A stretch of DNA of 64,000 nt from Candidatus Yanofskybacteria bacterium RIFCSPHIGHO2_01_FULL_41_21 (GTDB lineage: Bacteria > Patescibacteriota > Minisyncoccia > 2-02-FULL-40-12 > GWA2-44-9). The stretch spans positions 12,909 through 76,908 of the forward strand of contig MGJA01000003.1 in the NCBI GenBank assembly GCA_001794025.1. Reading direction: 5' to 3'. The position numbers and the translations under genes are program-made. The first letter of the stretch is position 1, and the number at the start of each line of letters is the position of its first letter. The notes beneath the pieces are model-generated. The model saw only the letters and a program-made list of their open reading frames with translations, made no database searches and was not told where the DNA came from. Positions 7,244 to 41,521 of the stretch are shown here, piece after piece.

Positions 7244-7253
7244 GGAGGGAGCG

Positions 7254-8756
7254 CTAGGACTTTCTATTGGCTCGGGTCAAGGCCAGGTGGCTTTTGATAT
7301 GATGGCGGGCTTGGGCGGTGCGGACTATTTTTAGCCAATCAAGGGAGGGTTTTAAATCCTTGCCTTTGCCTTTGATAATTTCTACGACATCACCGTTTTT
7401 AAGATTGGTATCGATGGTCGCCATTTTGCCGTTAACTTTGGCACCGCGGATGGCGTGGCCCAGATCGCTGTGAATAGCATAAGCGAAATCAATCGGGGTG
7501 GCGCCTTCGGGTAAGTCCTCAACGTCGCCTTTGGGAGTGAAAACAAAGATGCGATTTTTAAAAAAATCTATTTTTAAAGCGGAAAAACTTTCTTCGGTTC
7601 CAACATCAGCCAGAAATTCTTTTAAGCGATTAATCCAACCGAGTTCTTGAGTATCGGCTTTGATATTTTTTTTGTCGCCCTCGCTGTAAGCCCAGTGGGA
7701 GGCGATACCATTTTCGTTATGGTTTTGCATTTCCGGCGTCCTAATTTGTATTTCCATAATTTTTCCTTTTTCGCAGAAGATTGTGGTATGGAGCGATTGA
7801 TAGCCGTTGGGTTTGGGGAGGGCAATGTAATCCTTAATTAGCCCTGGGAGAGGCGTGTAGTGGGCGTGGATGACACCCAGGGCTTCGTAGCAAGATTTTA
7901 TATCCGGAACGATAATGCGCATAGCTACGATGTCGTAGATTTTGTTCAAGTTCATGTCCTTGTGGAGCAATTTTTGATACAAACTGTACAAATGTTTGGC
8001 TCGGGAATGGATGCTTATAATCGGGATATCGGCATCGGTTAAATGTCGTTCTACAACCGGTTTGGTCCGTTCAAGATAACGCGCGAGATCTTTGTGTTTT
8101 TCTTTTATTTTTCTTTTTAGCCAAGTGTATTCTGTCGGGTAAGCATATTGAAAAGCTAAATCCTCAAGTTGACCCTTCAGATCGCCCATACCTAGCCGAG
8201 CGGCGATAGGGGCGTAGATTTCCAAGGTCTCAAAAGCTATTCGTTGACGATCAATCGGCGGAAGATATTGAACCGTTTGCATATTGTGTAACCGATCAGC
8301 CAATTTAATAAGAATTACCCGCACATCTTCGGCCATGGCAAAAAACATTTTTTTGAGTGTCTGGATGTATTCATTCTTGGATTTATCGGAAATATTAGAT
8401 TGGTAATTTATTTTTTTAAGTTTTGTGAGACCTTCAACAAGAAAAGCAATATCAGCCCCGAAATTTTTGGTTATTGTCTCATTTGTTATATCCGCATCTT
8501 CTAAGGTGTCGTGAAGCAGTGCCGTAATGATACTAGCCGAGTCAAAATTAAGATTGTACAGATACTCCGCGACGGCGATAGGGTGGGTGATAAATTCTTC
8601 CCCCGATAATCTTTTTTGCCCGGCGTGAGCTTTTTCAGCCATAACCAAAGCCCGCTTAACAAGTTCGCGTTCCGAATCCGAATATCTATTGTTATTTATA
8701 AAACTCAAATCAGCCATAAGTAATATTAGGGTACGCCTTCTCGTCAGTTGTCGCAA
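7254..8756 (-). CDS. relA/spoT: Short-form bifunctional (p)ppGpp synthetase/hydrolase (HD + RelA/SpoT synthetase + TGS; no ACT domain)
   Basis: HD motif ALLHDTLED, synthetase domain (RAKHLYSLYQKL...DIVAMRIIV) and TGS-like C-terminus. Alternative start at 8717. Confidence 0.8.
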   Translation of the reverse strand: MRQLTRRRTLILLMADLSFINNNRYSDSERELVKRALVMAEKAHAGQKRLSGEEFITHPIAVAEYLYNLNFDSASIITALLHDTLEDADITNETITKNFGADIAFLVEGLTKLKKINYQSNISDKSKNEYIQTLKKMFFAMAEDVRVILIKLADRLHNMQTVQYLPPIDRQRIAFETLEIYAPIAARLGMGDLKGQLEDLAFQYAYPTEYTWLKRKIKEKHKDLARYLERTKPVVERHLTDADIPIISIHSRAKHLYSLYQKLLHKDMNLNKIYDIVAMRIIVPDIKSCYEALGVIHAHYTPLPGLIKDYIALPKPNGYQSLHTTIFCEKGKIMEIQIRTPEMQNHNENGIASHWAYSEGDKKNIKADTQELGWINRLKEFLADVGTEESFSALKIDFFKNRIFVFTPKGDVEDLPEGATPIDFAYAIHSDLGHAIRGAKVNGKMATIDTNLKNGDVVEIIKGKGKDLKPSLDWLKIVRTAQARHHIKSHLALTRANRKS

Positions 8757-17773: not shown

Positions 17774-17798
17774 AAAAGCTCCCTTGCGGGAGCTTTTG
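17774..17798. terminator. Intrinsic terminator hairpin (rnhA 3' end, abutting the rnpB 3' end)
   Basis: AAAAGCTCCCTTGCGGGAGCTTTT. Confidence 0.6.
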
Positions 17799-17800
17799 GT

Positions 17801-18171
17801 CTTGTAAACAATAAGCCGAGTTCTGTTCCGCTAGTTAGCGGAGGGTAACCATTTATCTGGTCTCGGCATTACTGCCGGACTCAAGCGATCTACTTATAAC
17901 TCACAGCCGAAGCTGTAAGCTTTGATCTTGCACCCCGATAAGTGTTTAGCCGTTTCACTCCCGATCTTTTAACCCTGATCGGAACTAAGCTGTAACCTTT
18001 GATAAATCAATGGTCTGGGTTTAGCTCGCCCTTACTTTCGCTTAGGCCGTCTCTGCTCGCAACTCTCGCGTCACCGCGGACGGGAATTACCCGCTATCGT
18101 TTCCGCCTCATCGGCAGATGGTGCTCGGACTTTCCTCTCCTTAATCCATAAGGACTAAGGAGCGATTACCT
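17801..18171 (-). ncRNA. rnpB: RNase P RNA (bacterial type)
   Basis: On the minus strand, the P4 halves GGAGAGGAAAGTCCGAGC and ACAGAACTCGGCTTAT are present. P1 is CTTGTAAAC pairing with GTTTACAAG at the termini. Length ~370 nt. Confidence 0.8.
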
Positions 18172-18275
18172 AGTTTACAAGATAATACAATTATACTCTT
18201 TTTTGATATCAAAAGCAAACTCAACAGATTGAAAAATAACATAGGACATGATAAAGTTAAATACGTCAAATGAAT

Positions 18276-22046: not shown

Positions 22047-24686
22047 ATGTCAGGTAGTGAAAATAAAGGGGTTGGGCAAGCAATGTTTGATGTGAAACCG
22101 GTCAATGAATCCGGTTCTCTTGATGTTCAGAAAATTGACGCCGTTCAACCAGTTGTTAACCTGACTTCTTTTAGGCCCAAAAAACCAAAATTTGGCCAAG
22201 GGAATCAGTCCAAACGACAAAATATTGAAGCTCCGGCCAAAGCGTTAGATGAAAGAAAATTAATTCCACCGCCCACACCATTAGAGGAAATATTGCCACC
22301 GGTGATTGGTTTGCCGTCTCATCAAGAGATTAAAGAACAGTTTGATGAGCTTATGAACCATGATTTGGATCTTAATATTGAGCTGACACAAGCGGGTATA
22401 ATAAAATTATCTGAATCTTCTGGAGAAAAACTTAGGCAGGCGAGACCTCGTTATAGGGTTATCAAAAATCGTAATTTGTCAGCTGTTGAGTCAGAACCCG
22501 ATTCGTATGCTCCTCTCATTTCCGCTATTCATGCATCTGCGACGGCGATTGCCCATGAGGAATATGTTCCACAAGTGCAGACGGAAAATTTTGATACTGA
22601 ATTTGAACCCGGGTCTGTTTTTGGATCAAATGAACTTTCTCAATCGGCCGAGATTGATGTGCGATCACTTTTTTCCGGTTCATCTATTCAACTTGCTTCA
22701 AAAAAATCTTATCCGAAAACGCCACGAGTTTGGAAATGGCCAAGATTTAGAATTAATAAAATCTATGTTTTTATTGCCGTCGTCGTTATCGTTGGGATTA
22801 TAATTATCGTGAGATATGGTATTAGTGTTAAGCGCCAAGTGGTTGAGCAAAGTTCGGCGGCGGTGACCAACCTTCAAACGGCCCAAGACGATTTAAAGAC
22901 CCTGAATTTTAAAAATGCTTCGCAAGATTTTTTTTCAGCTTATGCTAATTTTTCCAAAGCCGGGAATAGTTTGAATTTTTTGGGGGCAGGTGTGGCTGAC
23001 ATTCTTTCAGCTCTCCCCGGTGGCAGTACTCTTAAGTCGGCCAAAAACCTTGTTCAAGTCGGGCAGTTGCTTTCCGGCGCCGGAACTTCAATGACCACTG
23101 CTCTGGATACGGTTTCTAAAACAGGAGCACTTACAGACCCAATGAATTCCCAAGTACCGATTGGCCCAATAGTCAGTGCTTTAAAAAAGGCCTTACTCGC
23201 TTCTCAACAACAAGTTACCAAAGCCAGCGCCCTTATGGTTGATATTGATAGCAGTATCATTCCAGATGATAAACAGGAGAGTTTTAACGATTTAAAATCA
23301 AAACTGCCCGAACTTGAGGCGGGGATGAATATGAGCGTTGATTATGCTAAGTTTTTTGAAAACCTTATCAATAATGGTAAAGCCAAATATCTTGTGATGT
23401 TTCAGAATGCTTCCGAGTTACGACCGACGGGTGGATTCCCCGGGACATATGGCGTTGTATCGTTTGTGAATGGAAAGATGGAGAATCTTTTTGTTGATGA
23501 TGTTTATAATCTTGACGGTCAAATCAAAGAAAATATTATTCCACCGCTTCAAATGCAACACATTACTCCGACGTGGGGGATGCGTGATGCCAATTGGTAT
23601 GTTGATTTTCCGACTTCAGCCCGCAATATTGAAAAGTTTTACAAAAAGGAATCGGGACAAAGCGTTGATGGCGTGATTGTTATCAATCCGGAAATAATTC
23701 AGAAAATTCTTGAGATTGTCGGACCAATTGATATGCCGGATTATAAACTTACCCTTGATTCTAAAAATATTTTAACGACCGTCCAGAGCCAAGTTGAATA
23801 TGGGCCAAATCGGACTCAACCGAAGCAGATTCTCAAGGATTTCGCGCCATTGTTAATGAACAAGATTTATAATGCCGATTCGGATAAATGGCTCGCAATT
23901 TTTAATACTTTGGTTTTAAGCATGAACCAAAAAGATGTATTGATGAGTTTTGATAATTTATCGCTTGAAAGTTTTGTAACTGAGAAAGGTTTTGGTGGTC
24001 AAGTCCATCAGGGTGATACGGATTATCTAATGGCGACGATTACTAATATTAAGGGTTCCAAGACCGATGCGGTGACGGATACTTCAATGGTAGTAAATAC
24101 TAAATTTGAAAATGATGATGCCGTTCATACGCTAACCATTACGCGTAAACATAATGGTGGGGGAGAAAAATATGGATTTTATAATAAACAAAACCCCGCC
24201 TATGTCCGTGTCCTCGTGCCTGATGGCGCAGAGCTGATTTCTATTATTGGTAATGATAAACCAAATTTCACCCCACTTATAAATTATTCCAAAGATAAAA
24301 GTTTCGTTCGCGATGATAATTTGGTTAAGTTTGAAACCCCGCCCCAATCAGGGGCGGGGCAAGCGAGCTTGGCAAAATCTCAAGGCGTTGATTTGTACTC
24401 TGAATCAGGCAAGACCGAATTTGGTTTTTGGCTTATTACCGATGCCGGTAAATCAAAGACGGTCACGGTTCAGTATCGTGTACCAAAAGCTTTAACCGGC
24501 AAAAACTACTCGCTCTATATTCAGAAACAGCCCGCCTTGAAAATAAAGAACTTTAGTTTTTCAATGCAGAAACCCGCCAATCTTACTCCCGAGGCCTCGG
24601 CTCCGCTTCTAACCCAAGATGACTCCACTTACAGTTATTCGGCTCCGCTTGAGAATGATTTACCGATAAAAGTTAATTTTAAATAG
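22047..24686 (+). CDS. Large membrane-anchored extracellular protein (879 aa), possibly DUF4012-like, downstream of the EPS genes
   Basis: Single TM (IYVFIAVVVIVGIIIIV) after a ~230-aa cytoplasmic region. Motif NASELRPTGGFPGTYG. Family assignment is tentative. Confidence 0.5.
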   Translation: MSGSENKGVGQAMFDVKPVNESGSLDVQKIDAVQPVVNLTSFRPKKPKFGQGNQSKRQNIEAPAKALDERKLIPPPTPLEEILPPVIGLPSHQEIKEQFDELMNHDLDLNIELTQAGIIKLSESSGEKLRQARPRYRVIKNRNLSAVESEPDSYAPLISAIHASATAIAHEEYVPQVQTENFDTEFEPGSVFGSNELSQSAEIDVRSLFSGSSIQLASKKSYPKTPRVWKWPRFRINKIYVFIAVVVIVGIIIIVRYGISVKRQVVEQSSAAVTNLQTAQDDLKTLNFKNASQDFFSAYANFSKAGNSLNFLGAGVADILSALPGGSTLKSAKNLVQVGQLLSGAGTSMTTALDTVSKTGALTDPMNSQVPIGPIVSALKKALLASQQQVTKASALMVDIDSSIIPDDKQESFNDLKSKLPELEAGMNMSVDYAKFFENLINNGKAKYLVMFQNASELRPTGGFPGTYGVVSFVNGKMENLFVDDVYNLDGQIKENIIPPLQMQHITPTWGMRDANWYVDFPTSARNIEKFYKKESGQSVDGVIVINPEIIQKILEIVGPIDMPDYKLTLDSKNILTTVQSQVEYGPNRTQPKQILKDFAPLLMNKIYNADSDKWLAIFNTLVLSMNQKDVLMSFDNLSLESFVTEKGFGGQVHQGDTDYLMATITNIKGSKTDAVTDTSMVVNTKFENDDAVHTLTITRKHNGGGEKYGFYNKQNPAYVRVLVPDGAELISIIGNDKPNFTPLINYSKDKSFVRDDNLVKFETPPQSGAGQASLAKSQGVDLYSESGKTEFGFWLITDAGKSKTVTVQYRVPKALTGKNYSLYIQKQPALKIKNFSFSMQKPANLTPEASAPLLTQDDSTYSYSAPLENDLPIKVNFK

Positions 24687-24689
24687 GTC

Positions 24690-25582
24690 GCTCGACTCTG
24701 ACATTTCCCTTGCTGTTCTCTCCGCCTGTCTCGCAACCTCGACCTCGTCACTGATGCCGAACAAAAAGGCCACCTGATTTACGCTTCGCTACAAACATCC
24801 TTTTTGTTACCGGCATAGTTTCCTCGGTCTTTGGGCGAGAAGACGGCGTCGTTCAACGCTCGGAAATGCCCGAGCCGAGCTTATTTTTGTGGTTTTTGGC
24901 CCCTATTTTCAATCTTGACTTTTATATGAAATAAGAGTATAATTAAAATATGATTCAATGAGCAGTTCCTTTCAAGGAGGTTGGTAGTGCCGACAGCAAC
25001 AGCAGTTGAAATCCCTTCTCGTGGTTACGCCGACGTTTTCGATCTTCGGATCGAGGGCGACGGAAAGACTCACGGCGTCGGTGCTGGTTCTCAGTACATC
25101 GGCGGTTACTCCGGCATGGGCTGGTACGAGTACTTCATCGACAGGAATACCGGCGAGAAGTACAAGGTCCACTGCTCGGATGGAGTGAACGGTGGCAAGG
25201 ACGCCCACACCGACAAGGATTGCAAGTGGCGACACGATTGCTACTTGGCAATCATCGAGCGAACTCACGCCGAGACCAAGACCGGCCAGACGGTCGTCTA
25301 CATCTCGCGCAACGAATGGGTCATCATGCAGGGGTTCGACCACGGTAAGTGGTTGGAGACCGCCGAGGGCCTGCGCGACGGCGAGCAGAGCAAGGAGAAC
25401 GTTATCGAAGGTGGATTCATTGGCATGTGCCGAGGCATCCCCGTCGTCTGCGATCTCAAGCGTGTGGACAAACTCCCGCCTCGGGAGTAGCCGAAGCACC
25501 ACAGCATAGGCGGAGGGTTGATCCCTCCGCCGAGCCCGACCAACCCTCGGGTTTTTTCATACAAAAAATTGAGGAGCGAAGC
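24690..25582. other. GC-rich (~60%) foreign island in an otherwise AT-rich chromosome
   Basis: Abrupt composition shift. Both strands are open because of the GC bias. Bounded downstream by MITE-like copy C. Confidence 0.7.
24987..25490 (+). CDS. Hypothetical protein encoded in the GC-rich island
   Basis: AAGGAGG RBS at 24974-24980, 6 nt before a GTG (TTG at 24981 also possible). 168-aa ORF; no motif recognised. The antisense ORF 24972-25502 is regarded as a GC artefact. Confidence 0.45.
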   Translation: MPTATAVEIPSRGYADVFDLRIEGDGKTHGVGAGSQYIGGYSGMGWYEYFIDRNTGEKYKVHCSDGVNGGKDAHTDKDCKWRHDCYLAIIERTHAETKTGQTVVYISRNEWVIMQGFDHGKWLETAEGLRDGEQSKENVIEGGFIGMCRGIPVVCDLKRVDKLPPRE

Positions 25583-25738
25583 CCCTAACCCCCAGCGAGA
25601 AGTTGCGCAGGTCAATTTGCTTTAGCCAATTGACGAACCCCCGAAGCTTGGTGCTTGGTGAGGGGGCGAGCGTCTAGATAGCGCCGAGTCGCTGGAACGA
25701 GGTGACTATCGGTCGAGTCGGGGGTTGGGGGCGGAGCT
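25583..25738 (-). repeat. MITE-like repeat copy C (diverged; same family as 4827-4998 / 7072-7243)
   Basis: Shares ends CCCTAACCCCCAGCGAGAAGT... and ...TATCGGTCGAGTCGGGGGTTGGGG with copy B. The centre is diverged. Confidence 0.7.
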
Positions 25739-25767
25739 TTTGAAAACGAATAAATCAAGATATACTG

Positions 25768-27096
25768 ATGATAATGTTTAAATCCAAAATATTTAGGGCG
25801 AGTGTATTGTTGGGGTTTTTTACTATTGTCGGCAAATTGATTGGTCTCTTGCGAGATCGGATTTTGGTCGGACAATTTGGCGCTTCAACTGAATTGGACG
25901 TGTATTATGCCGCGTTCCGGATTCCGGATCTTGTTTTTAATCTTTTGATTCTTGGTGCGACCTCGTCGGCGATTGTGCCGATTTTTATTGAATACTATCA
26001 GCGGGATAAGGCGGGAGCTTGGCGTGTTGCCCAGAATTTCTTGAACGTCATGGTGGCGGGAGTGGCAGTCCTGTCAATATTAGTTTTTGTCTTTGCTGAA
26101 CCGATAGCGTATTTGATTGGGCCTGGTTTTGGTCCGGCAGAAATAAAAATTCTTGCCAATTTGATGCGTATCATGCTTTTAAGTACCCTGATATTTGCGG
26201 TCAGCACTATTTTAGGATCAATTCTCCATGCTCTTCAGCGATTTTTGGTCTATGCTCTGGCACCGGTGTTTTATAATCTCGGTATTATCGCGGGTGTGGT
26301 GTTTTTTGTCCCGTTGTTTGAACGATGGGGATATAACGGGATTTATGGTCTTGGATTTGGTGTCGTGTTGGGCGCTTTGCTCCACTTGCTTATTCAATTA
26401 CCCGTAGCGTTGCGTGAAGGATTCCGTTTCGGGAAATTATTTGATATATCCGATCATACATTTAGACGAATGATTACGCTTATGATTCCTCGGACATTGG
26501 CGTTGGGTGCTTACAATATTGGTTTAACAATTATCACAAGCATTGCTTCGTTATTAGGGAGCGGGAGTATTACTATTATCAATCTGGCGACCAATCTTCA
26601 GTTTGTTCCGGTTTCCGTTATTGGCATTTCGTTGGCTACGGCGGTGTTTCCACAATTATCTTCTCATGCCGTTACCCAAGATATACCTGAATTCAAGAGA
26701 AAACTTAATCATGCTCTAAGAGTGACGTTTATATTGACCGGCATCATTGCGGTATTCATGTTTGTTTTTAGGCAATTGATTATTGATATTATTTTTCAGG
26801 TTGGAACTTTCAAAGAAACCGATCGGGCGTTAACAGCATCGGTACTTGGTATTTTTATGTTTAGCGTTATAGCCCAGAGTTTAATGCACGTTATTACGCG
26901 GGCCTATTATGCTTTTCAAAACACAAAAACCCCGTTTCTGGTAGCGATATCGTCTATTGTGCTTAATGTTCTGTTGAGTTATATATTGGGATTACAATTA
27001 GGGATGGGTGTTAAAGGAATTGCCATCGCTACTGTTATTGCTTACAACATTAATTTTATGTTTCTCTATATTCTATTCAGGCGTCGGTATTTTTAA
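25768..27096 (+). CDS. murJ: Lipid II flippase MurJ/MviN
   Basis: N-terminus SVLLGFFTIVGKLIGLLRDRILVGQFGASTELDVYYAAFRIPD typical of MurJ. ~12 TM helices. Confidence 0.8.
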   Translation: MIMFKSKIFRASVLLGFFTIVGKLIGLLRDRILVGQFGASTELDVYYAAFRIPDLVFNLLILGATSSAIVPIFIEYYQRDKAGAWRVAQNFLNVMVAGVAVLSILVFVFAEPIAYLIGPGFGPAEIKILANLMRIMLLSTLIFAVSTILGSILHALQRFLVYALAPVFYNLGIIAGVVFFVPLFERWGYNGIYGLGFGVVLGALLHLLIQLPVALREGFRFGKLFDISDHTFRRMITLMIPRTLALGAYNIGLTIITSIASLLGSGSITIINLATNLQFVPVSVIGISLATAVFPQLSSHAVTQDIPEFKRKLNHALRVTFILTGIIAVFMFVFRQLIIDIIFQVGTFKETDRALTASVLGIFMFSVIAQSLMHVITRAYYAFQNTKTPFLVAISSIVLNVLLSYILGLQLGMGVKGIAIATVIAYNINFMFLYILFRRRYF

Positions 27097-32973: not shown

Positions 32974-33062
32974 GATAGTGATTAGCGAGTAGCCAATAGC
33001 GAATAGTGTCATCAAAAAAGCCATTGTAAAAATGGCTTTTTTGATGTATAGTAATTTTAATT

Positions 33063-33133
33063 TGCGGGATAGTGTAATGGTAGCACGCATGACTCTGAAT
33101 CATGAAATCCAGGTCCGACCCCTGGTCCCGCAG
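33063..33133 (+). tRNA. tRNA-Gln (anticodon CUG)
   Basis: Acceptor TGCGGGA/TCCCGCA, U8, D-stem GTGT/GCAC, anticodon loop CTCTGAA, T-stem CCAGG/CCTGG. Confidence 0.75.
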
Positions 33134-33137
33134 CTAC

Positions 33138-33150
33138 GTTGAGATAGGTT
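33138..33150 (+). repeat. 13-bp direct repeat GTTGAGATAGGTT (copy 1), 4 nt after tRNA-Gln
   Basis: Identical copy at 35197-35209; related CCAGCCAAGGTTGGAG at 33976-33992. Confidence 0.7.
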
Positions 33151-33187
33151 CGGCTTCCGAGGTGCCTTATAAACTAATTAATAATTT

Positions 33188-33529
33188 ATGGAGAATATAA
33201 ATGTATGGCTAGTTATTTTGGGAGTCAGTTTAGCTTGGGGATTATTACATCATAAGGCAGGATATTATGCAGATATGAATAAACATAATGAGGCCTTTAA
33301 ATTTTTGGAATTTTGGCGTTGTTGTCTTAACTACTTTATAGCATTAGTTGTCGCATATTACTTTGTTTCAATAAGATGGGGGTATATTAATCAGGGGGGT
33401 AATCTTTATATAGGAGATTTTATCTTGGGAACCATTTTTCTTATTGGTATTTTCGGTTGGCTACCTTATTTTATTAAAAATATTACTGAGGGGATAAGTG
33501 CAATTTTCACTAAATTATTTACTAAATAG
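33188..33529 (+). CDS. Hypothetical small membrane protein
   Basis: 3 TM helices; first gene of the accessory array. Confidence 0.5.
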   Translation: MENINVWLVILGVSLAWGLLHHKAGYYADMNKHNEAFKFLEFWRCCLNYFIALVVAYYFVSIRWGYINQGGNLYIGDFILGTIFLIGIFGWLPYFIKNITEGISAIFTKLFTK

Positions 33530-33543
33530 ACCCACTACAAACC

Positions 33544-33960
33544 ATGATGACACCAAATGAAGCAGAAAAAATTATAAACAATTACGGAGCGGCATTAGGC
33601 GTCGGCACAAATGGTACTGCTCGTCTGATCTCTTTGCTCCCAGCTTCCAAAGCAAAGATTAGGTATGCTTTTTATGTTTACATTGCTGAGCTGGTAAAAA
33701 ACAGTCAACTTACTAAGGAGATAGGTAATAATCTAGTTGGTGCTTATATAGGATTAAGATCATTTATTGATGACAAAAAGGCTGATAAGTTTAATAAAAT
33801 TCACAGACAAATAGAAGAAGAAGTAAAGACAAAAAATAATTCAGATATCGACACAGAGGAAAAGAAAGAATATATGGATTTTATTAAAGAAGTGTATGGA
33901 ATCATGGCCGATATGGCCGAAATTAATGACTATATACGAGAGTGCCAGGAAGATATATAA
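33544..33960 (+). CDS. Hypothetical protein (138 aa)
   Basis: ORF 14 nt after the previous gene. No motif recognised. Confidence 0.45.
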   Translation: MMTPNEAEKIINNYGAALGVGTNGTARLISLLPASKAKIRYAFYVYIAELVKNSQLTKEIGNNLVGAYIGLRSFIDDKKADKFNKIHRQIEEEVKTKNNSDIDTEEKKEYMDFIKEVYGIMADMAEINDYIRECQEDI

Positions 33961-34098
33961 ATAACTAGTCCAAGGTGTCCAGCCAAGGTTGGAGGTATCG
34001 TGGATGACCAGAAAGCGAGATTTTGCTACAATTTTTACAACGAGTATAATGACCTAATCTAATTGATAAAGAACTTGATGGTTTATTGAAATAAAACT

Positions 34099-35166
34099 AT
34101 GGCACTAATAATTTCACAAAAAGGTAAAAGAACTCAAAAGATAGACAAGTCTGATTTTGAAAAGGAAGGAAACCTTCAGAGCTATATCCATGAAAATCCG
34201 GAATCTATTCCGGTGTATGAGATAGAAGAAAGCAAGCGGCTTTTTGTCGTAGCAAGGGAGTTTAAAACCGAATCAGGTCCGATTGATGCTTTAGCTATAG
34301 ATAAAGATGGCGATATTTATGTCGTTGAAACCAAGCTATATAAGAATCCGGATAAGCGAACCGTAGTGGCGCAGGCACTTGATTATGGTGCATCTCTTTG
34401 GCGTCATAGCGATTATAGTGAATTTATAAAGCTAATTAACGAAGAGATAAATAAAAGATTTAAAATCAGTTTTGAGGAAAAAGTTAGAAATTTCTTTGAT
34501 ATAGATGAAGAACAGACAGGGGCATTATTAGAAGCGATCAGAACGAACCTTCAACAAGGAAATATTAAATTTGTAATTTTAATGGATGACGTTAGCGACC
34601 GGCTAAAAGATCTGATTGTCTATATCAATCAAAACAGCCAGTTTGATATTTATGCAGTTCAGATGGAATATTACAAGTTTGAAAGTTATGAAATAATGAT
34701 CCCCAAATTATTCGGTGTTGAAGTTAAAAAAAGCATGACGAGCAACTCCGCTGGCAGTCCGAGGAGAAAGTGGGATGAGCAAGGTTTTTTTGAAGAAGTA
34801 AAGAAAGTGTTTTCAAAATCCGATTTTGAGTTAATTTTAAAGTTCTACACTTTTTCCAAAGAGTCAGCCGATGAAATTCATTGGGGTACTGGTGTTAACC
34901 AAAGTTCTTTTTCTGCTGGGTTTAATAAGTTAGGGAATAGGCCCTTGTTCGTTCTCCTTTCTGACGGAAGAATGAAAATTTCAACCGAATACCCAAAACG
35001 AGGAGCAACTAAAGAGCAAATTTCCAATCTAGATCATCTTAATTTAGAGCTTAAGAAAATAGGATTGGAAGTGAACCCAAAATCCGAGAGAACTGTTTTT
35101 ACTCTACCTGAGTGGTCATCTAAACTAGATGTTATGATAAAAACTATTAAGAAATCAATAGATTGA
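34099..35166 (+). CDS. NucS/DUF4263-superfamily PD-(D/E)XK nuclease-domain protein (nuclease domain N-terminal)
   Basis: GPIDALAIDKDGDIYVVETK...VVAQALDYGASLW matches the G-x-ID-x-LA-x-D...VV-E-x-K...Q-L-x-Y core of NucS-like nucleases. Confidence 0.55.
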   Translation: MALIISQKGKRTQKIDKSDFEKEGNLQSYIHENPESIPVYEIEESKRLFVVAREFKTESGPIDALAIDKDGDIYVVETKLYKNPDKRTVVAQALDYGASLWRHSDYSEFIKLINEEINKRFKISFEEKVRNFFDIDEEQTGALLEAIRTNLQQGNIKFVILMDDVSDRLKDLIVYINQNSQFDIYAVQMEYYKFESYEIMIPKLFGVEVKKSMTSNSAGSPRRKWDEQGFFEEVKKVFSKSDFELILKFYTFSKESADEIHWGTGVNQSSFSAGFNKLGNRPLFVLLSDGRMKISTEYPKRGATKEQISNLDHLNLELKKIGLEVNPKSERTVFTLPEWSSKLDVMIKTIKKSID

Positions 35167-35196
35167 ATTCTAACATCGAACCAAATTACCAGCCAA

Positions 35197-35209
35197 GTTG
35201 AGATAGGTT
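35197..35209 (+). repeat. 13-bp direct repeat GTTGAGATAGGTT (copy 2)
   Basis: Identical to 33138-33150. Downstream CCCGAGACGCATCGTGGCCTT resembles 33151-33170. Confidence 0.7.
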
Positions 35210-35285
35210 ATTTTGCCCGAGACGCATCGTGGCCTTACTTCTATTCCTATCCCGTAAAAGCATATCGACTGAGTGCCGTATTCAA

Positions 35286-35320
35286 GAACATAAAACCGCC
35301 AATATAGCGGTTTTATGTTC
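35286..35320. terminator. Strong palindromic hairpin (14-bp arms) in a long AT-rich leader
   Basis: GAACATAAAACCGC CAATATA GCGGTTTTATGTTC. Confidence 0.5.
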
Positions 35321-35580
35321 TTTCGCGGATGAGTGAAACAGTCCTTGTGGATAAGTTTGATCAAGGGGCAAAAGTTAGTAGTATATAGTTACTATTTTAA
35401 AAATATTTTTTGTAAAAATTATGAAAGAAAACTCTTATAAAATAAGGGTTACTTCAATTAGGATGTAATACATCTTTACATAAAAACCGATAATTACCGA
35501 TATAAACAGATGAAACTCTTGATATTATATACCATTAAGTTATAATTGTTTTTATGAGTATAGATTATTAACTAAAAATT

Positions 35581-35964
35581 ATGAGCAACACCGACCCACT
35601 TCAAAAATTAGTTGTCAGTGAATCGCAGGCAGTTGATAGACAGGCCCTTGCAGATCTATTGTCACCATATCTATCAATAAATAAAGAAACTCAGTCTTTT
35701 GATTTTTCGGGAGCCTTCCTGGAATTGACAAGTGCGGATAGGATTCTAATTCTTCTTTCTGCCGCGAAAGCCAGGAATCTGATCCTTGGTTTAGATGAAA
35801 AAATTAGACCATTGGAAATAATAAAGATGGAGATTGCGCCTGAGGGGACTATTAAAAATACGCTGAAGAAGCTTCTCGCATCTAAAGACATCAAGGCAGA
35901 CGAGGGTAAATATTACCTGCCGAACTATAAGCTCTCCCAAGTTATAGCCCGATTCAAAAAATAA
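35581..35964 (+). CDS. Hypothetical protein A (127 aa) of a tightly linked three-gene unit
   Basis: Preceded by a 414-bp AT-rich leader. 10-nt gap to the next gene. Confidence 0.5.
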   Translation: MSNTDPLQKLVVSESQAVDRQALADLLSPYLSINKETQSFDFSGAFLELTSADRILILLSAAKARNLILGLDEKIRPLEIIKMEIAPEGTIKNTLKKLLASKDIKADEGKYYLPNYKLSQVIARFKK

Positions 35965-35974
35965 TTAAAATAAT

Positions 35975-36388
35975 ATGGACAACACTAATTTTGAGCAGAA
36001 AATATTGGAGCGTATGTCGGCACTTGAACAGAGGGTTGATAAACTTGAGAATGGCGGAAGTAAAACCGTTAATGCTCATGGTGTCGCAAAAAAGTTATCA
36101 ATCAAAGAGTTTATTATGACTAAAAAACTTGATGACGATGTTAAACGTACTTTGGCGATCGCGTACTTTATTGAACACATGGAAAATACAAAGCCATTTA
36201 ATACCGAAGATCTTAAAAAGGCCTTTCGTCTCGCAAAGATTTCGTTGCCATTGAATATTAATGACAAGATTAACATGAATATTCGTGTCGGCAGGATAAT
36301 GGAAGCAGAAGAAAAAAAGGATTCCAAGAAGGCCTGGGAACTTACAGCAACTGGGGAGACTTTCGTGGAGAACGAACTTAATAAATAG
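35975..36388 (+). CDS. Hypothetical protein B (137 aa; coiled-coil N-terminus)
   Basis: ILERMSALEQRVDKLENG heptad pattern. Confidence 0.5.
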   Translation: MDNTNFEQKILERMSALEQRVDKLENGGSKTVNAHGVAKKLSIKEFIMTKKLDDDVKRTLAIAYFIEHMENTKPFNTEDLKKAFRLAKISLPLNINDKINMNIRVGRIMEAEEKKDSKKAWELTATGETFVENELNK

Positions 36389-36400
36389 TTGATATTCCAA

Positions 36401-37069
36401 ATGAAAGAAAAAAGGTCTGCAAAAAATTCTACTGATGCCCTAATTATTCTTTGGGAAGAAGGATTCTTTAAGAAATATCAGAACTTTAAAAGTGTCTGTG
36501 AAAATCTATCGAGCCGAGGTAATAATTTTCCCTACTCAAGTTTAGCTATAGCTCTTAGGCAAGCTAAATTTTTAACGCGGAGAGGTAAACGGGGATTTTT
36601 TGAGTATATTCAAAAACACAAAGCTGATTCGGAAGTAATAAAAGCCATTGCTCCAGGTTTATTCTCTGATGAGTTATTAAAATCGCTTCAAAAAGATTTC
36701 AAGATAGAGCTAGAAGATCTCAAATACAATTATGGTAAGAGTGGCAACTGCACAGCATTTTTATTACGGAAGATTTTAGAAAAATTAATTTATATTACTT
36801 TTGCAAAGCACAATCTCATTTCAAAACTAGAAGATAAATCTCAAACTGGTCGGTTTGTTGGACTTGAAGCGATGATTAGATTAGCTTCTTCAGAAAAAAT
36901 AGAGGGAGTTCCTTTTCTCATATCAAAAACTGCAAATGAAATTCAGAGCATTAAATTTTTAGGGGACACATCTGCCCACAATCATTTGGTGGAGGTCGAT
37001 ATGAAAACTATAGTCCCACAAATGCCCTACATAATTACTGCGTATAAGGAATTAGTTAAAAAATTATAA
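36401..37069 (+). CDS. Hypothetical protein C (~222 aa)
   Basis: ATG 12 nt after the gene B stop (TTG at 36389 also in frame). No motif recognised. Confidence 0.5.
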   Translation: MKEKRSAKNSTDALIILWEEGFFKKYQNFKSVCENLSSRGNNFPYSSLAIALRQAKFLTRRGKRGFFEYIQKHKADSEVIKAIAPGLFSDELLKSLQKDFKIELEDLKYNYGKSGNCTAFLLRKILEKLIYITFAKHNLISKLEDKSQTGRFVGLEAMIRLASSEKIEGVPFLISKTANEIQSIKFLGDTSAHNHLVEVDMKTIVPQMPYIITAYKELVKKL

Positions 37070-37298
37070 TATGAACAAACCACAAAAATTGTTTGTAGAA
37101 CGCTTATTTAGATGGTAGGTATGGTGTGAAAAAATCACATACTACGAAACCACTCGTGACGACTGGTACTCAGGCAAATGCGATTAAGAAAGCAGAGAAT
37201 GTGGATCCTAATGAGTTGTTAGTTGAGTGTGTTAGAGATACAAAAGTTGGAGGGCGAGATGGGTGGTGTAAACCCTAATAAACTGCTAATATTTCATT

Positions 37299-38483
37299 AT
37301 GGAAAAAGAAAAAATACTCCGACAGTTCCAAGACTTCTTGGTTAGCTATAATGCCGTCCAAAAAGACGAGATCTGGCAAAAGCAGTCCAATATCTTTAGG
37401 ACTTTTTGGAACCAAAGAGTCCTAAATGATCAGGTCAAAGAACTTGATGATTTTGAAATCGATAACGTAATTCGACTGATCGACTATAATTCTAAGGGCA
37501 AAAAAGCTGGCGATGAGGCGGTTGCCAAGGTTATGATCCCGCAAGGTGTTTGGCGAAAAATGTTCAATCAGTTTAAAACGGATAAGAAACTCGCCCAACT
37601 TGTCGATCAAATAATGGGAACATTTGAGCAAGATAAACGCATAAAGCTAATTGACGAACTTTATAAATATAACGAACCGTACCGCAACAGTTTAACTGGC
37701 CAAAGTGGTAATGCTGTTAATTCTTTTATATTTTTATGGGCACCATTAAAAAACATCAGTATCATTTCTTTAAAAGATAGGCAGAAATTAATTCAATTCC
37801 TAGATGTCCAGAATGGACCAAACTTCGAGAATGATTCTACTGCCAAGAAGATTGTTGAATCTAACGATTCTCTGGCCTCAAGCTTTGCTAAAATATTTGG
37901 CAGTCAATATTCTCCTAGAACAATATGCTCCTTCTTTTACAGCCCTCTGATTAAGAATGAATGGCGGTCTGAGGATATTGGAGAAGAAACTGTCCCTTGG
38001 GGTGGTTGGAAAAAATCACCAGAAGAAGATTTTGCACCAATTATAGCCGAATCATCTATGCTGGGCGACCCAGCCCTTTTCTATATGGAAAGTCAGCTCG
38101 AAGATTTTCTGATAGAAAATTGGGACAAAACAGAACTTGGTCAGAAGTACGATTTAATTGAAGAAGAAGGCGAAGTAGTTAGCCAACAATATAGAACAGG
38201 AGTGGGTCTAATAGATATTCTCGCCCGAGACAAGAAAACCAAACAACTTGTTGTTATTGAATTAAAAAAGAATCAAACAAGTGATGATACTGTGGGTCAA
38301 CTCGCTAGATATATGGGATGGCTCGAAGAAAATAAAACTAATGGTAAGCTAACCAAGGGTATTATCATAGCCGCCCAATATGATCAAAGATTGTACTATG
38401 CTCTAAAGAAAATGCAGGACGCAGAGGTTTATTTATATCGAGTGGATTTTAAACTTACAGAGTTCAAAGATGGCTCAAAATAA
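37299..38483 (+). CDS. NucS/Shedu(DUF4263)-like protein with C-terminal PD-(D/E)XK nuclease domain
   Basis: C-terminus GVGLIDILARDKKTKQLVVIELKKNQTSDDTVGQLARYMGWL matches the NucS-like/DUF4263 catalytic core. The N-terminal ~300 aa are unassigned. Confidence 0.55.
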   Translation: MEKEKILRQFQDFLVSYNAVQKDEIWQKQSNIFRTFWNQRVLNDQVKELDDFEIDNVIRLIDYNSKGKKAGDEAVAKVMIPQGVWRKMFNQFKTDKKLAQLVDQIMGTFEQDKRIKLIDELYKYNEPYRNSLTGQSGNAVNSFIFLWAPLKNISIISLKDRQKLIQFLDVQNGPNFENDSTAKKIVESNDSLASSFAKIFGSQYSPRTICSFFYSPLIKNEWRSEDIGEETVPWGGWKKSPEEDFAPIIAESSMLGDPALFYMESQLEDFLIENWDKTELGQKYDLIEEEGEVVSQQYRTGVGLIDILARDKKTKQLVVIELKKNQTSDDTVGQLARYMGWLEENKTNGKLTKGIIIAAQYDQRLYYALKKMQDAEVYLYRVDFKLTEFKDGSK

Positions 38484-38600
38484 GCGGATTAGCTAAAAAA
38501 GTGACACTCTCAAGTAGTGTCCATTTTATCCCTTTTTAGCCTGCCTGAGACGCTTCGTTTGTGATAAGATTTGGATAATTAACCTTTCAATAAAAACTCA

Positions 38601-38963
38601 ATGAAAAAGATTTACTACAATAAACTTATACGCGATAAGATACCCGAAAAGATTAAACGGAACGGCGGGGACTACAAGATAAATAAGCTTAATCAGAAGC
38701 TTTTTGAGGTAGAACTCTTAAAAAAAGTCGGAGAAGAGGCGAGTGGGCTTTTATCTTCTAAGACAAAAGAAGAAGTTACCTCTGAACTTGCCGATATTAT
38801 TGCTGTGATAGAGGAGATAAAAAAATTAAAACATATTACATCAAAACAAATTTCAGAAGCATTGAAAATAAATTTTGATAAAAAGGGAGGATTCAATAAG
38901 AAACTATTTTTAGTATGGTCTTCCGATACCGGATATAAGACCAATGAAAAGAGGAACAAATAG
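38601..38963 (+). CDS. MazG-like / PRA-PH-like nucleoside triphosphate pyrophosphohydrolase
   Basis: YNKLIRDKIPEKI...EEASGLL...ELADIIAVIEEI pattern typical of small all-alpha NTP-PPase proteins. Confidence 0.5.
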   Translation: MKKIYYNKLIRDKIPEKIKRNGGDYKINKLNQKLFEVELLKKVGEEASGLLSSKTKEEVTSELADIIAVIEEIKKLKHITSKQISEALKINFDKKGGFNKKLFLVWSSDTGYKTNEKRNK

Positions 38964-39066
38964 TTTAGAGATTTTAACCGAATCAAGGAGAGAGAAAAAG
39001 GGGTCAGGTCCCTTTTCTTCTGCTCGAGGCCCATCGTTATGATAAGATAAATAATAAGTTAATTTT

Positions 39067-39462
39067 ATGAGTGAACAAATATCAACGCCGGAAAAAGTAT
39101 CTAGAGAGCAAGCTCTCGCTATGTATAGAAAATTTGTAGAGCGTGGAATTACCAGTCCCGATGCTTTAGATTTGAATGATCCCGAAGTTATTGAAGCGAA
39201 TAAACTATTTGAAAAATGGGACGCGCAAGAGAGTGTAAAAGGAGATTTTGAAAGGCATAATTTTGAAAAGACCAAGTTTTATGTTGATGCTGGATTTACC
39301 GACTCTAATTATCTTGGGGATGTTCTAGGATGGCTCTTTCAAGATGCGGGAGATATAGAAAAGCAACCAGATAATCCCACTCGAGTTCAATTGCGAAGCG
39401 ACTACGCAAAAGAGATAAAAAAGATCAGGGACTTATTGGGCTTGGCCACCGGTGGGAATTGA
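39067..39462 (+). CDS. Hypothetical protein (131 aa)
   Basis: ORF preceded by intergenic modules M1/M2. No motif recognised. Confidence 0.45.
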   Translation: MSEQISTPEKVSREQALAMYRKFVERGITSPDALDLNDPEVIEANKLFEKWDAQESVKGDFERHNFEKTKFYVDAGFTDSNYLGDVLGWLFQDAGDIEKQPDNPTRVQLRSDYAKEIKKIRDLLGLATGGN

Positions 39463-39492
39463 GCCGACAGTCGGCTCAATTCCCACCATTTG
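39455..39492. repeat. 38-bp perfect palindrome GGTGGGAATTGAGCCGACAGTCGGCTCAATTCCCACC (copy 1); identical copy at 42567-42603
   Basis: Exact duplicate 3.1 kb away. Followed in both cases by TTTGAGCCGAT... and CCGAGACACGTTGCTA modules. Confidence 0.8.
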
Positions 39493-39577
39493 AGCCGATG
39501 CTGTTATTGATCAAGGTGGTGTTCAGCTAAGGTTAGACGGGTTATTCCGCCTGAGACACGTTGCTAGTTTAAAATTT

Positions 39578-40798
39578 ATGAAAAATATTCCATTTACAGA
39601 AAAACAAATTAGAGATTTTGTAAAAGATCATCCAACGCCATTTTATGTTTATGATGAAGATGGAATTCGCCATTCTGCCCGGAAACTTATCGATAGTTTT
39701 TCGTGGAATTCTAGTTTTAAAGAATTTTTTGCGGTTAAGGCAACTCCAAATCCAAGTATCTTAACTATTCTAAAAGAAGAAGGTTGTGGCGCTGATTGTA
39801 GCTCGTTTCCAGAATTGCTTCTTGCTGAACGTGTAGGAATACGAGGAGAAGATATTATGTTTACCTCAAATGATACGCCAGCTGAAGAATTCAGAAAAGC
39901 TAGTGAACTTGGTGCGATCATTAATCTAGATGATCTTTCCCATCTTGATTATTTGGAAAAAGAAGTTGGCTTACCAGAATTAATCAGTTTTCGCTATAAT
40001 CCCGGATCTTTAACGGGTAATGTTATTATCGGGACACCAAAAGAGGCAAAATTTGGGATTACAAAGGAACAATTACTTGAAGCATACCGGATCGCAAAAG
40101 AAAAAGGAGTGAAACGTTTTGGTCTCCATACGATGATTGCTTCCAATGAGCTTAATCCACAACATTTTATAAATACAGCGGAGATGATTTTCGATATTGC
40201 CTTAGAACTGAAAGAAAAAATTGGAATCAAAGTGGAGTTTATTAACCTGGGTGGTGGGTTTGGAATTCCTTACAAACCTGAGCAAGAAGAGCTTGATCTT
40301 TCCGTTGTGTCGGAGGGAGTCCAGAAACTCTATGAAAAAATGGATATGGCACCAATAAGGTTATTTTTTGAGAGTGGTCGATACATTACTGGTCCGCATG
40401 GTTATCTTATTTCCCGTGTACGCCATATAAAGAACACCTACAAAAAATACATTGGCCTTGATGCTTCAATGGCAGATCTTATGAGACCTGGAATGTACGG
40501 TGCATATCATCACATCACCGTTCTCGGTAAAGAAAAAATGCCATACGATGTAACCTGTGATGTGACAGGTTCATTGTGTGAAAATAATGACAAGTTTGCT
40601 GTCGACCGCAAGTTACCTGAAATAAACACTGGAGACATAGTCATCATTTATGATGTCGGGGCCCATGGCCACTCGATGGGGTTTAATTATAACGGTAAAC
40701 TTAGATCTTCAGAATTTCTACTCGGATCAAATGGTAAAATGAAAATAATACGTAGAGCAGAAACTATAAATGATTATTTTGCAACCTTAAATTTTTAG
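39578..40798 (+). CDS. Fold-type III PLP-dependent decarboxylase (DAP / ornithine / carboxynorspermidine decarboxylase family)
   Basis: TPFYVYDE ... FFAVKATPNPSILTIL ... GGGFGIPY motifs of the Orn/DAP/Arg decarboxylase family. Confidence 0.65.
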   Translation: MKNIPFTEKQIRDFVKDHPTPFYVYDEDGIRHSARKLIDSFSWNSSFKEFFAVKATPNPSILTILKEEGCGADCSSFPELLLAERVGIRGEDIMFTSNDTPAEEFRKASELGAIINLDDLSHLDYLEKEVGLPELISFRYNPGSLTGNVIIGTPKEAKFGITKEQLLEAYRIAKEKGVKRFGLHTMIASNELNPQHFINTAEMIFDIALELKEKIGIKVEFINLGGGFGIPYKPEQEELDLSVVSEGVQKLYEKMDMAPIRLFFESGRYITGPHGYLISRVRHIKNTYKKYIGLDASMADLMRPGMYGAYHHITVLGKEKMPYDVTCDVTGSLCENNDKFAVDRKLPEINTGDIVIIYDVGAHGHSMGFNYNGKLRSSEFLLGSNGKMKIIRRAETINDYFATLNF

Positions 40799-40902
40799 CT
40801 CCGTCCGAAACGTGTAGTTTATGATAAGATTTGGATAGCTACTAATTGCCTTGCGGGGCTTGACCGTTTGACGGTTCCAGCTCGAAGTGATTCAGTATAA
40901 TT

Positions 40903-41463
40903 GTGTCATCCATGAATTCTTCTATTTATCAGATTAAAATTACTCTCAAAGACTCAAAACCACTAATTTGGCGAAGATTTTTAGTTTTTTCAGATATTTC
41001 TTTATATAAGTTGCACAAAGCCATCCAAATTATTATGGGATGGGAGGATTATCATCTGCATCATTTTGAAGTAGGAAGAAATTTTTATGGAATTCCAGAC
41101 CCAGATTTTGATGATGGTACTATAAATGGAAAAGGGATCCTATTGAAAGATATTGTTCCGAAAATTCCGTCTCAGTTTTTGTATGAGTATGATTTCGGAG
41201 ATAGTTGGGACCATATTATATTGGTAGAGAAAGTTATGAATTCAGAGTTGAAAATGAAGCATCCAATTTGTATTGACGGTAAAAGAGCTTGCCCTCCAGA
41301 GGATGTTGGAGGTATTTGGGGGTACCAGCATTTTTTAAAGGTTCTTGGAAACCCTAAACACAAAGAATATCGGGATTTAAAAGAGTGGATAGGTGGCAAA
41401 TTTAACCCAGAACACTTTAATAAAGAATTAGTTAATGAAATTTTAAAAAAGATTAAGTATTAG
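40903..41463 (+). CDS. pRiA4b ORF-3-like family protein (PF07929-like)
   Basis: LYEYDFGDSWDHIILVEK and 'IKITLKDSKPLIWRRFLV' motifs. Confidence 0.55.
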   Translation: MSSMNSSIYQIKITLKDSKPLIWRRFLVFSDISLYKLHKAIQIIMGWEDYHLHHFEVGRNFYGIPDPDFDDGTINGKGILLKDIVPKIPSQFLYEYDFGDSWDHIILVEKVMNSELKMKHPICIDGKRACPPEDVGGIWGYQHFLKVLGNPKHKEYRDLKEWIGGKFNPEHFNKELVNEILKKIKY

Positions 41464-41477
41464 TGTTAAAATATAGT

Positions 41478-41521
41478 CATAACCGTGAAAATACAACAAT
41501 TATCAGCGTTTTTCACGGTTA
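41478..41521. promoter_or_regulatory. 15-bp-arm inverted repeat (CATAACCGTGAAAAA ... TTTTTCACGGTTATG) followed by a TTGACA -35-like hexamer upstream of fic
   Basis: Perfect inverted repeat with an ~18-nt spacer. TTGACA at 41524-41529. Confidence 0.4.

Follow-up and report, generated by a model that had tools for sequence, protein, structure and literature searches.

A GC-rich 1,047-nt insertion beside murJ, probably a horizontally acquired gene cassette, in a Candidatus Yanofskybacteria population

The REP/BIME, Correia/NEMIS, ERIC and RUP elements are structured interspersed repeats of bacteria, or miniature inverted-repeat transposable elements (MITEs). Phage morons, described by Hendrix and colleagues, are autonomous promoter-gene-terminator units of deviant composition which lie between two genes. 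Genomic islands and horizontal gene transfer (HGT) are frequent in groundwater Patescibacteria (PMC12455944). Here we describe a GC-rich insertion in a 64,000-nt stretch of a Candidatus Yanofskybacteria genome (contig MGJA01000003.1; this whole stretch is called the window), located between the gene of a DUF4012-family envelope protein and murJ (lipid II flippase) and carrying an open reading frame (ORF) of 167 aa with a strong Shine-Dalgarno sequence (SD).

Our reading of this region, to which we assign a probability of roughly 0.75, is that of a horizontally acquired 1,047-nt islet with an autonomous gene cassette, present in one population of uncultured groundwater Candidatus Yanofskybacteria. 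The islet would have entered the very short gap that separates the DUF4012 gene from murJ, and its core cassette would comprise a sigma-70 promoter close to the consensus, a leader that is conserved, a perfect SD, a GTG start, the 167-aa ORF and tandem terminator hairpins. With this predicted promoter and terminator, expression of the cassette would need nothing from its neighbours. The left-edge hairpin and the structured repeat at the right edge (here called R1) may have arrived separately, or may mark the manner in which the DNA was inserted.

The event is of an ordinary, known kind, a single-gene HGT islet or ORFan. Like other such islets (PMC12455944), the insert shows atypical GC content and codon usage, is absent in relatives, holds a single accessory gene and has a patchy distribution; unlike the typical islet, it lacks an integrase, a tRNA and direct repeats, it has two structured elements at its ends, and its gene belongs to a family that is GC-rich even where apparently vertically inherited. 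With phage morons the cassette shares a self-contained transcription unit, a composition unlike that of its neighbours and a position exactly between two genes, although these neighbours are chromosomal envelope genes and not prophage genes.

The insertion and the anatomy of the cassette

The site is empty in four related Yanofskybacteria genomes (loci fetched for comparison are designated here by L-numbers). In the closest of them (L045, MurJ 88% identical), the DUF4012 stop codon TAG is followed by a 33-nt spacer and the murJ ATG; in L036/L037 (MurJ 87% identical) the two genes overlap by 4 nt, in L034/L035 (83%) the stop and start codons share bases in TAATG, and in L038/L039 (73%) the gap is 7 nt. 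The L045 spacer runs contiguously from TAG-TCG into TTTTGA...GATATACT...ATG, and the window has the same two parts (TAGGTCG on the left and TTTTGA...GATATACT...ATG on the right), split by 1,047 nt. Since the two genes either overlap or are separated by no more than 33 nt in these four relatives, the whole 1,047 nt is an insertion in the lineage of the window, which supports the foreign island proposed in the first-pass annotation. The ends of the insert were set by eye against L045, the closest island-free relative, and are good to a few nt; the left hairpin starts on its first base. Around the site, the gene order glycosyltransferase, DUF4012, murJ, lepA is conserved in the relatives. The murJ ATG at 25774 matches the deposited 440-aa protein, which is 100% identical to MurJ OGM98120.1 of a Candidatus Yanofskybacteria metagenome-assembled genome (MAG), where the protein of the 167-aa ORF (OGM98119.1) adjoins it. 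Additionally, the same samples hold island-bearing and island-free populations (ERZ28563803 and ERZ28563625, for example).

The heptamer TTTAAAT occurs both at 24677-24683 (last DUF4012 codons) and at 25777-25783 (murJ codons 2-4), each time within coding sequence; this pair could be a coincidence, Phe-Lys being encoded each time, or a vestige of the insertion.

In composition, the insert (55% GC) stands out clearly from the window (40.7% GC). The three most GC-rich 500-nt windows of the 64 kb all fall within 25001-25700 (0.586-0.590, for a mean of 0.407 and a standard deviation of 0.044), and the ORF (GC1 0.58, GC2 0.42, GC3 0.75) has a GC content at third codon positions (GC3) which compares with 0.362 (standard deviation 0.057, maximum 0.457) in 37 other window genes (z = 6.8). 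Its codons tend to end in C (C3 0.47, against 0.15 in the host), nearly exclusively so for Tyr, Phe, His and Ile, and its amino-acid usage is shifted towards the residues of GC-rich codons (Gly, Ala, Arg and Pro, GARP; z +2.0). The GC outlier noticed on first inspection is therefore confirmed by the window scan and by GC3, and the region combines the deviant composition and codon usage of a genomic island with a site that is empty in close relatives. Other parts of the original description, an island of about 60% GC at 24690-25582 on a background of about 38%, have to be corrected: the background is the 40.7% given above, the GC-rich stretch runs on to about 25740, and GC along it is uneven (hairpin 54.5%, promoter gap 28%, ORF 58.5%, terminator region 56%, repeat 59.8%).

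A sharp compositional change of this kind could also come from an assembly chimera or from contamination, with GC-rich reads of another organism joined into a Yanofskybacteria contig, a concern that had been raised from the start. The island DNA is 100% identical on eight contigs from eight assemblies, of which three terminate within the left hairpin, a point in favour of this account. However, the other five contigs (up to 170 kb) run from the DUF4012 gene through the full island into murJ, and since both junctions are thus crossed with identical sequence in five independent assemblies, the region is not a chimera. The breaks in the remaining three fall within the 190-nt inverted repeat, a known kind of obstacle for short-read assemblers, and the island itself contains an AT-rich promoter and a host-specific repeat (R1). 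The chimera or contamination account is already contradicted by these data, and we give it almost no weight.

Within the insert, the predicted promoter sits in an AT-rich gap (24885-24973, 28% GC) and is followed by the leader and the SD (coordinates of all features are collected in Table 1). The start first described as AAGGAGG-N6-GTG is borne out; the product, originally given as 168 aa, has 167 aa when counted from the GTG. Downstream of the ORF, the RNA of 25488-25572 folds with -31.9 kcal/mol (z -4.7) into stems at 25509-25531 and 25532-25554, followed by UUUUUU, as would be expected of a terminator. With a ratio of nonsynonymous to synonymous substitution rates (dN/dS) of 0.16-0.28, the ORF is under purifying selection and is a real gene.

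On the opposite strand, a frame of 176 aa is open along the whole ORF. This frame was rejected as a second gene: the frame reappears in 100% of the synonymous shuffles of the ORF, and 5 of the 15 homologues do not keep it open. It is open because the ORF has no TTA, CTA or TCA codons, and the initial opinion that the openness of both strands is an artefact was right. In AT-rich genomes, GC-rich islands often turn out to be RNA genes, and the two elements that flank the ORF, the hairpin and R1, both fold well, from which one could suppose that the region encodes a structured RNA and that the ORF is spurious. For the ORF this is already contradicted and scarcely credible, given that it has conserved motifs, homologues with as little as 32% identity and the dN/dS values mentioned above, that its AlphaFold2 model is confident, and that no Rfam match was found at E<=1 for positions 24000-26500; the two flanking elements may still be RNAs.

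The strong SD of the island gene is an exception in this genome, as had been supposed. Apart from the island ORF, 51 of the 59 window ORFs of at least 100 aa show no SD-like motif of at least 4 nt near any candidate start, and only three show one of at least 5 nt (the scan covered up to 20 nt from any candidate start among the first 40 codons of each ORF). Such scarcity fits the report that a subgroup of Parcubacteria is devoid of the anti-SD motif (PMC9297842). Neither a 16S gene nor a nusG-rplK cluster, from which it could be seen whether the host belongs to the Parcubacteria without uL1 and anti-SD, is found in the window. The only other window gene with a long SD (AGGAGGT) encodes a phosphoketolase (XFP; Pfam E 2e-138), within 48277-51722, and is followed by an acetate kinase gene; local GC is 43-48%, above average, and this stretch may be another acquired operon.

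Some observations weigh against the acquisition of an autonomous cassette. The hallmarks of mobility are missing from the borders: there is no tRNA within 4 kb of the insert, no convincing target-site duplication at its ends, and no integrase or transposase flanking it (the flanks being DUF4012 and MurJ by Pfam; the window ORFs were not screened for tyrosine recombinases). No donor was found for the island. Furthermore, if the host ribosome lacks the anti-SD, as in the Parcubacteria subgroup cited above, the SD of the island may be useless.

Table 1. Features of the insert, of its flanks and of other parts of the window.
Feature	Position	Strand	Details
Whole insertion	24691-25737	no strand	spacer comparison with L045
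Long imperfect hairpin, 190 nt, left edge of insert	24690-24880	-	inverted-repeat arms 24690-24708 / 24862-24880
Predicted sigma-70-type promoter TTGACT-17-TATAAT	24915-24943	+	11/12 consensus positions; consensus match only
Leader motif GTTCCTTTCA, SD AAGGAGG (24974-24980) and 6-nt spacer	24965-24986	+	read from sequence
ORF, 167 aa, GTG start (24987), TAG stop	24987-25490	+	GenBank OGM98119.1, 'hypothetical protein A2735_00205'
Antisense open frame, 176 aa, artefact	24972-25502	-	codon-on-codon with the ORF
Terminator region, two adjacent GC-rich hairpins then T-run	25509-25557	+	RNA fold
R1 copy, right edge of insert	25575-25743	+	covariance-model score 157 bits
DUF4012-family envelope protein gene, left flank, host gene	22047-24686	+	Pfam PF13196, E 6.8e-30
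murJ (lipid II flippase), right flank, host gene	25774-27096	+	Pfam PF03023, E 1e-87
Further R1 copy	4825-5002	-	BLAST
N4/N6 DNA methyltransferase gene in R1-bracketed block	5137-5970		Pfam E 2e-56
Overlapping 176-aa ORF, putative nuclease	5963-6493		weak PD-(D/E)XK match
84-aa ORF in R1-bracketed block	6557-6811	-	
Further R1 copy	7078-7255	+	BLAST
Bacterial RNase P RNA class A	17797-18181	-	133.9 bits

Structured elements at the ends of the insert

The two ends of the insert carry different structured elements. On the left, the long hairpin folds better as minus-strand RNA (-86.3 kcal/mol, z -6.1) than as plus-strand RNA (-63.5 kcal/mol, z -3.3), and a weak promoter-like site for the minus strand lies just upstream of it (24912-24883). 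No Rfam match was found for the hairpin at E<=10, and no BLAST relative of it in the window or in 45 fetched loci.

On the right, R1 is one of several copies of a repeat of 142-209 nt (GC 55-67%). Besides the further two copies in the window, a search outside it with a 22-nt core led to 8 metagenome loci, in which a covariance model identified 11 copies; R1 is found in L026, L028 (three copies), L030, L031 (two), L032 and L033. Its structure consists of a closing stem of 13-15 pairs (CCCTAACCCCC/GGGGGTTGGGG), conserved single-stranded blocks (AGCGAGAAGTCGCG, GCTTGGTGAGG, CGAGCGTCTAGAT and ATTATCGGTCGAGTCGG) and internal hairpins that vary. Among 10 copies (from the window and four loci), both partners change in 21 of the 53 pairs and 93.9% of cells are paired, against 8.5 +/- 2.0 double changes in shuffles and 5-8 with slid partners. 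The closing stem contains a conserved U.G wobble, which makes the structure strand-specific. Rfam yielded nothing credible for R1, the only match being rsmX, whose 17.8 bits fall short of the gathering score (56).

The placement of R1 resembles that of a mobile element. Its orientation to genes is inconsistent and its sites vary between related genomes: a copy lies between lepA and divIC in L032 and not in the window, and the relatives have no R1 at the DUF4012-murJ site. Like REP/BIME, Correia/NEMIS, ERIC, RUP and other MITEs, R1 is multi-copy and intergenic, occurs in either orientation and at variable positions, and has a terminal inverted repeat. Unlike those repeats, it is branched, with conserved single-stranded blocks, many compensatory changes and a strand-specific structure, in which it is more like a functional RNA. 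Neither a target-site duplication nor a cognate transposase was seen by eye at the three window copies, for which no systematic search was made. R1 is either a mobile repeat or a small RNA gene, or both, and we regard it as a well-supported candidate for a new class of structured RNA or mobile element in Yanofskybacteria-type genomes.

Since R1 is absent from the homologous cassettes examined in other genomes, it is not part of the gene cassette. The single foreign island of the first-pass annotation is thus foreign and also composite, its right 170 nt being a repeat found elsewhere in the genome. The cassette does not fit the pattern of an integron gene cassette, in which a promoterless ORF precedes an attC site (an RYYYAAC...GTTRRRY hairpin), as the ORF has a strong promoter of its own. 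The ends of R1 are attC-like (CCCTAAC...GTTGGGG), but the element is branched, measures 170 nt and is conserved in internal blocks.

The two other R1 copies of the window are 97% identical, inverted and outward-pointing, and bracket an AT-rich block (30-36% GC) with the genes of a DNA methyltransferase and a putative nuclease (Table 1). This block (4825-7255) looks like a type II restriction-modification module inserted between parB and a RelA/SpoT-like gene. It invites the idea that the whole 1,047 nt is likewise a non-autonomous mobile unit, with the hairpin and R1 as its ends, moved in trans by an enzyme whose gene lies elsewhere, in the manner of MITE-flanked cargo or of hairpin-ended cargo of the IS200/IS605 type. 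The hairpin and R1 do lie within a few nt of the insert boundaries, the island R1 points outward like the pair around the restriction-modification genes, and, as described above, R1 sites differ between related genomes and the island site has no R1 in the relatives. However, no R1 copy forms the left end, which is without relatives, the hairpin and R1 are both missing from the homologous cassettes elsewhere, the R1 copies of L031 point inward and those of L028 stand singly before housekeeping genes, and there is neither a transposase nearby nor a clear target duplication. We consider such a unit unlikely, and retain the acquired islet with a core cassette as the better description.

Elsewhere in the window, a 12-kb block of 33-38% GC (33000-45500) holds ORFs that were not recognised by eye (from their first 60 residues only, with no search of family libraries), and could be another accessory or defence region. 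The window also has four tRNA genes (Leu-CAA, Gly-CCC, Thr-CGT and Gln-CTG).

Distribution and GC-richness of the gene family

The 167-aa protein belongs to a small, uncharacterised family of about 80 clusters, nearly all from Patescibacteria. A word-indexed search returned 24 homologous clusters (42-100% identity, E<=2e-28), and an exhaustive profile search in 1.84 billion sequences returned 82 representative cluster proteins (E<=0.001), none of which bears an informative name. Among 185,579 species representatives there are 12 loci of the family, at least seven of them labelled as Patescibacteria (Zambryskii-, Uhr- and Parcubacteria) and four as 'uncultured Gammaproteobacteria'. One of the latter, L018, is syntenic with Uhrbacteria MAGs, with NusG and L11 80-90% identical, so that its label is probably wrong and the other Gammaproteobacteria labels are open to doubt as well.

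The closest homologues (L012, L014, L042 and L044, with 70-82% aa identity) are found in genomes of 32-37% GC, in unrelated neighbourhoods, and in all four an AT-rich promoter and a strong SD precede the ORF and a hairpin terminator follows it. This layout, with a terminator formed by a hairpin and a T-run, is the one of the window cassette and recurs in L009; the genomic contexts of the window, of these five loci and of L010 are unrelated. The window, L012, L014 and L044 also have in common a leader that runs into the SD (TTCGTCC-AAT-CGTTCCTTTCAC-AG...AGGAGG), at 24965 in the window, 590 in L012, 5975 in L014 and twice in L044 (626-650 and 1280-1305), which precedes different GC-rich ORFs of these cassettes. 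Besides the leader, an AT-rich palindrome (CCATCAAAG...TTTGATGG) lies between two cassette genes in L012, L014 and L044, and together they suggest that the cassettes are either regulated in common or derived from one mobile genome. Where the window has the hairpin, three close homologues have a small GC-rich ORF upstream (of 87 aa, of 95 aa and zinc-ribbon-like, and of 138 aa), and the 138-aa ORF, in L044, bears the same leader as the window cassette. The small partner ORFs of L010, L012, L014 and L044 have no homology to each other or to the window and no Pfam match; these upstream ORFs look like members of a shared pool of GC-rich cassettes.

A virus of Patescibacteria could have left or delivered such a cassette, as a moron or as a remnant. 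Judged from the sequence, the gene stands alone between a promoter and a terminator of its own, in a composition unlike its flanks, and in L012, L014 and L044 the leader recurs with small GC-rich ORFs, which hints at a common mobile genome; moreover, a distant homologue is carried by viral contigs of IMG/VR (70 and 191 kb). Nevertheless, no homologue was found among 50,697 GenBank phage records and 72,556 plasmids (PLSDB), the protein has no PHROG family, the flanks are host envelope genes and not a prophage, and the PHROG annotation of the IMG/VR contig is mostly blank, hallmark phage genes not being confirmed in the 14 kb that were read. A viral origin of the cassette is, on balance, rather improbable.

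GC-richness is found in every host examined: the gene lies 7-25 GC points above its host in 15 of the 15 genomes for which DNA was available (host GC 32-54%). The first-pass annotation had proposed a recent transfer from a high-GC donor, of which the foreign arrival is supported and the recent high-GC donor is not, as the nearest homologues are all similarly GC-rich cassettes in AT-rich Patescibacteria genomes. The only homologue that matches its surroundings in GC is a 32%-identical copy on an IMG/VR contig of 60% GC, 6 kb from a deoxyribosyltransferase-like gene. The high-GC donor account is probably too simple.

In five genomes (L017, L018, L021, L024 and L025, about 2400-8200 in each) the family gene has one conserved slot. 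There, nusG, rplK, rplA and a dCTP-deaminase-like gene are followed by the family gene and then by a convergent dCMP/cytidine deaminase gene (of the two such genes scanned, that of L017 also has a nucleoside 2-deoxyribosyltransferase domain), a nucleotide-salvage trio being thus wedged into a ribosomal and transcription gene cluster in all five. In this syntenic clade the flanking proteins are 70-90% identical and the family protein 46-55%, and the GC3 of the family gene is 0.56-0.87, against 0.30-0.68 in its neighbours, an excess of 0.11-0.46. The adjacent ribosomal protein genes are no richer in GC3 than other neighbours, and therefore high expression does not explain the GC of the family. 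Given the excess in a conserved slot, recent arrival is not the whole story either: the family is persistently GC-rich, and this composition is more than a sign that a copy has lately come in. Three causes are conceivable: the gene may be imported again and again from a mobile pool rich in GC, selection may act on its codons or mRNA, or gene conversion may be biased.

These data bring forward another account, in which GC-richness is maintained in an old Patescibacteria family, by codon or mRNA selection, by GC-biased gene conversion or by constant replacement from a GC-rich mobile pool, and the window copy is one more transfer within the phylum. This is a possibility to be taken seriously, even if we hold it to be somewhat less than an even chance. 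It would account for the excess in all 15 genomes and for the GC3 of the family gene in the conserved slot, where the neighbouring proteins are so similar, and the close homologues keep a GC3 of 0.71-0.78 in spite of being dS 0.7-1.2 apart. On the other side, polarised singleton third-position changes among five close homologues number 28 from GC to AT and 11 from AT to GC (p 0.009), which suggests ongoing decay towards host composition, as would be predicted for genes drawn from a GC-richer pool, with the reservation that parsimony inflates the direction. In addition, the GARP shift of the ORF would be expected after long residence in GC-rich genomes, and a homologue at background GC does exist on the 60% GC viral contig.

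The protein, its putative function and the meaning of the cassette

The AlphaFold2 model of the 167-aa protein is confident (mean predicted local distance difference test, pLDDT, of 90.3) and shows a predicted alpha/beta fold. The family proteins are mildly acidic (median pI 5.5), share the motif V-H-C-S-D-G-V-N-G-G, and have R12, A15, D19, G40, W46, D52, T55, V61, C63, D65, G66, S107, E110, G143, G146 and G150 nearly invariant. Because no signal peptide is recognisable, the product is probably cytoplasmic. The early remark that the protein matches nothing recognised holds in all the searches carried out. Pfam, PHROGs, NCBIfam and PADLOC, queried with the protein and 24 aligned members, returned nothing beyond a cold-shock domain in longer relatives; sequence and profile searches of the PDB (with 24- and 59-member alignments) returned only cold-shock proteins and capsid matches at chance level (E about 1); and Foldseek had best E-values of 0.35 against the PDB and 0.084 against BFVD. 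Two specific leads were dropped: a link to the HK97 capsid 'G-x-PV' hairpin, as noise among those capsid matches, and an H-Y-E ADP-ribosyltransferase reading of H29/Y49/Y59/E110, with H29 and the tyrosines less than 90% conserved in the 59-member alignment and no match to the ADP-ribosyltransferase fold.

As to function, we tentatively propose an enzyme or binding factor that acts on nucleotides or nucleic acids, a proposal that we consider plausible without regarding it as likely. It is based on three kinds of evidence. An N-terminal cold-shock domain (PF00313), which implies work on single-stranded nucleic acid, is fused to at least nine members (P0017, P0021, P0024, P0027, P0030, P0031, P0037, P0041 and, weakly, one further). 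The gene lies beside pyrimidine or deoxynucleotide salvage genes in six genomes, where its neighbours are a dCTP deaminase, a dCMP deaminase, or a phosphoribosyltransferase and a deoxynucleoside kinase (the last two following the gene in L019). Finally, R12, D19, D52, T55, C63, D65, S107 and E110 are near-invariant polar residues, as in an active site. Further neighbours include, in L012, a RibD_C (DHFR-like) gene about 1.1 kb from the family gene, to which an ORF near the family gene of L017 is 24% identical (E 5e-6).

The balance is reduced by several facts. Five of the six nucleotide-metabolism neighbourhoods are the syntenic block described above and count as one evolutionary event. In all, the links of the family to nucleotides or nucleic acids amount to about three or four independent observations. 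The window copy itself has no nucleotide-metabolism neighbours, and its protein has no Pfam match at E<=1, hence no cold-shock domain; the Foldseek searches of the PDB and BFVD brought up no enzyme-like relative.

HGT appears to be the route by which the cassette came to the DUF4012-murJ spacer, and the family data permit a more far-reaching conjecture. The promoter, the SD and the C-ending, GC-rich codons might all be maintained adaptations, and no remnants of a donor, in a portable and host-independent cassette, which would encode a pyrimidine-deoxynucleotide or single-stranded nucleic acid enzyme of new fold and would be spreading among SD-poor, AT-rich Patescibacteria. We hold this to be a long shot. 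If it were true, the deviant composition would be functional, for instance by protecting the mRNA from A/U-directed RNases or, alternatively, by tying expression to the C/G nucleotide pools.

Whatever the origin of its composition, an SD-led, GC-rich gene in a nearly SD-free genome makes SD reading by the ribosomes of such Parcubacteria directly testable, and a GC3 up to 0.46 above that of the neighbours, in a conserved slot, is not predicted by simple amelioration theory. Additionally, a protein with a confidently predicted fold and no detectable relative, linked to cold-shock domains and to pyrimidine and deoxynucleotide salvage genes, is a tractable target in the search for a missing activity, one that would be relevant to organisms living on salvaged nucleotides.

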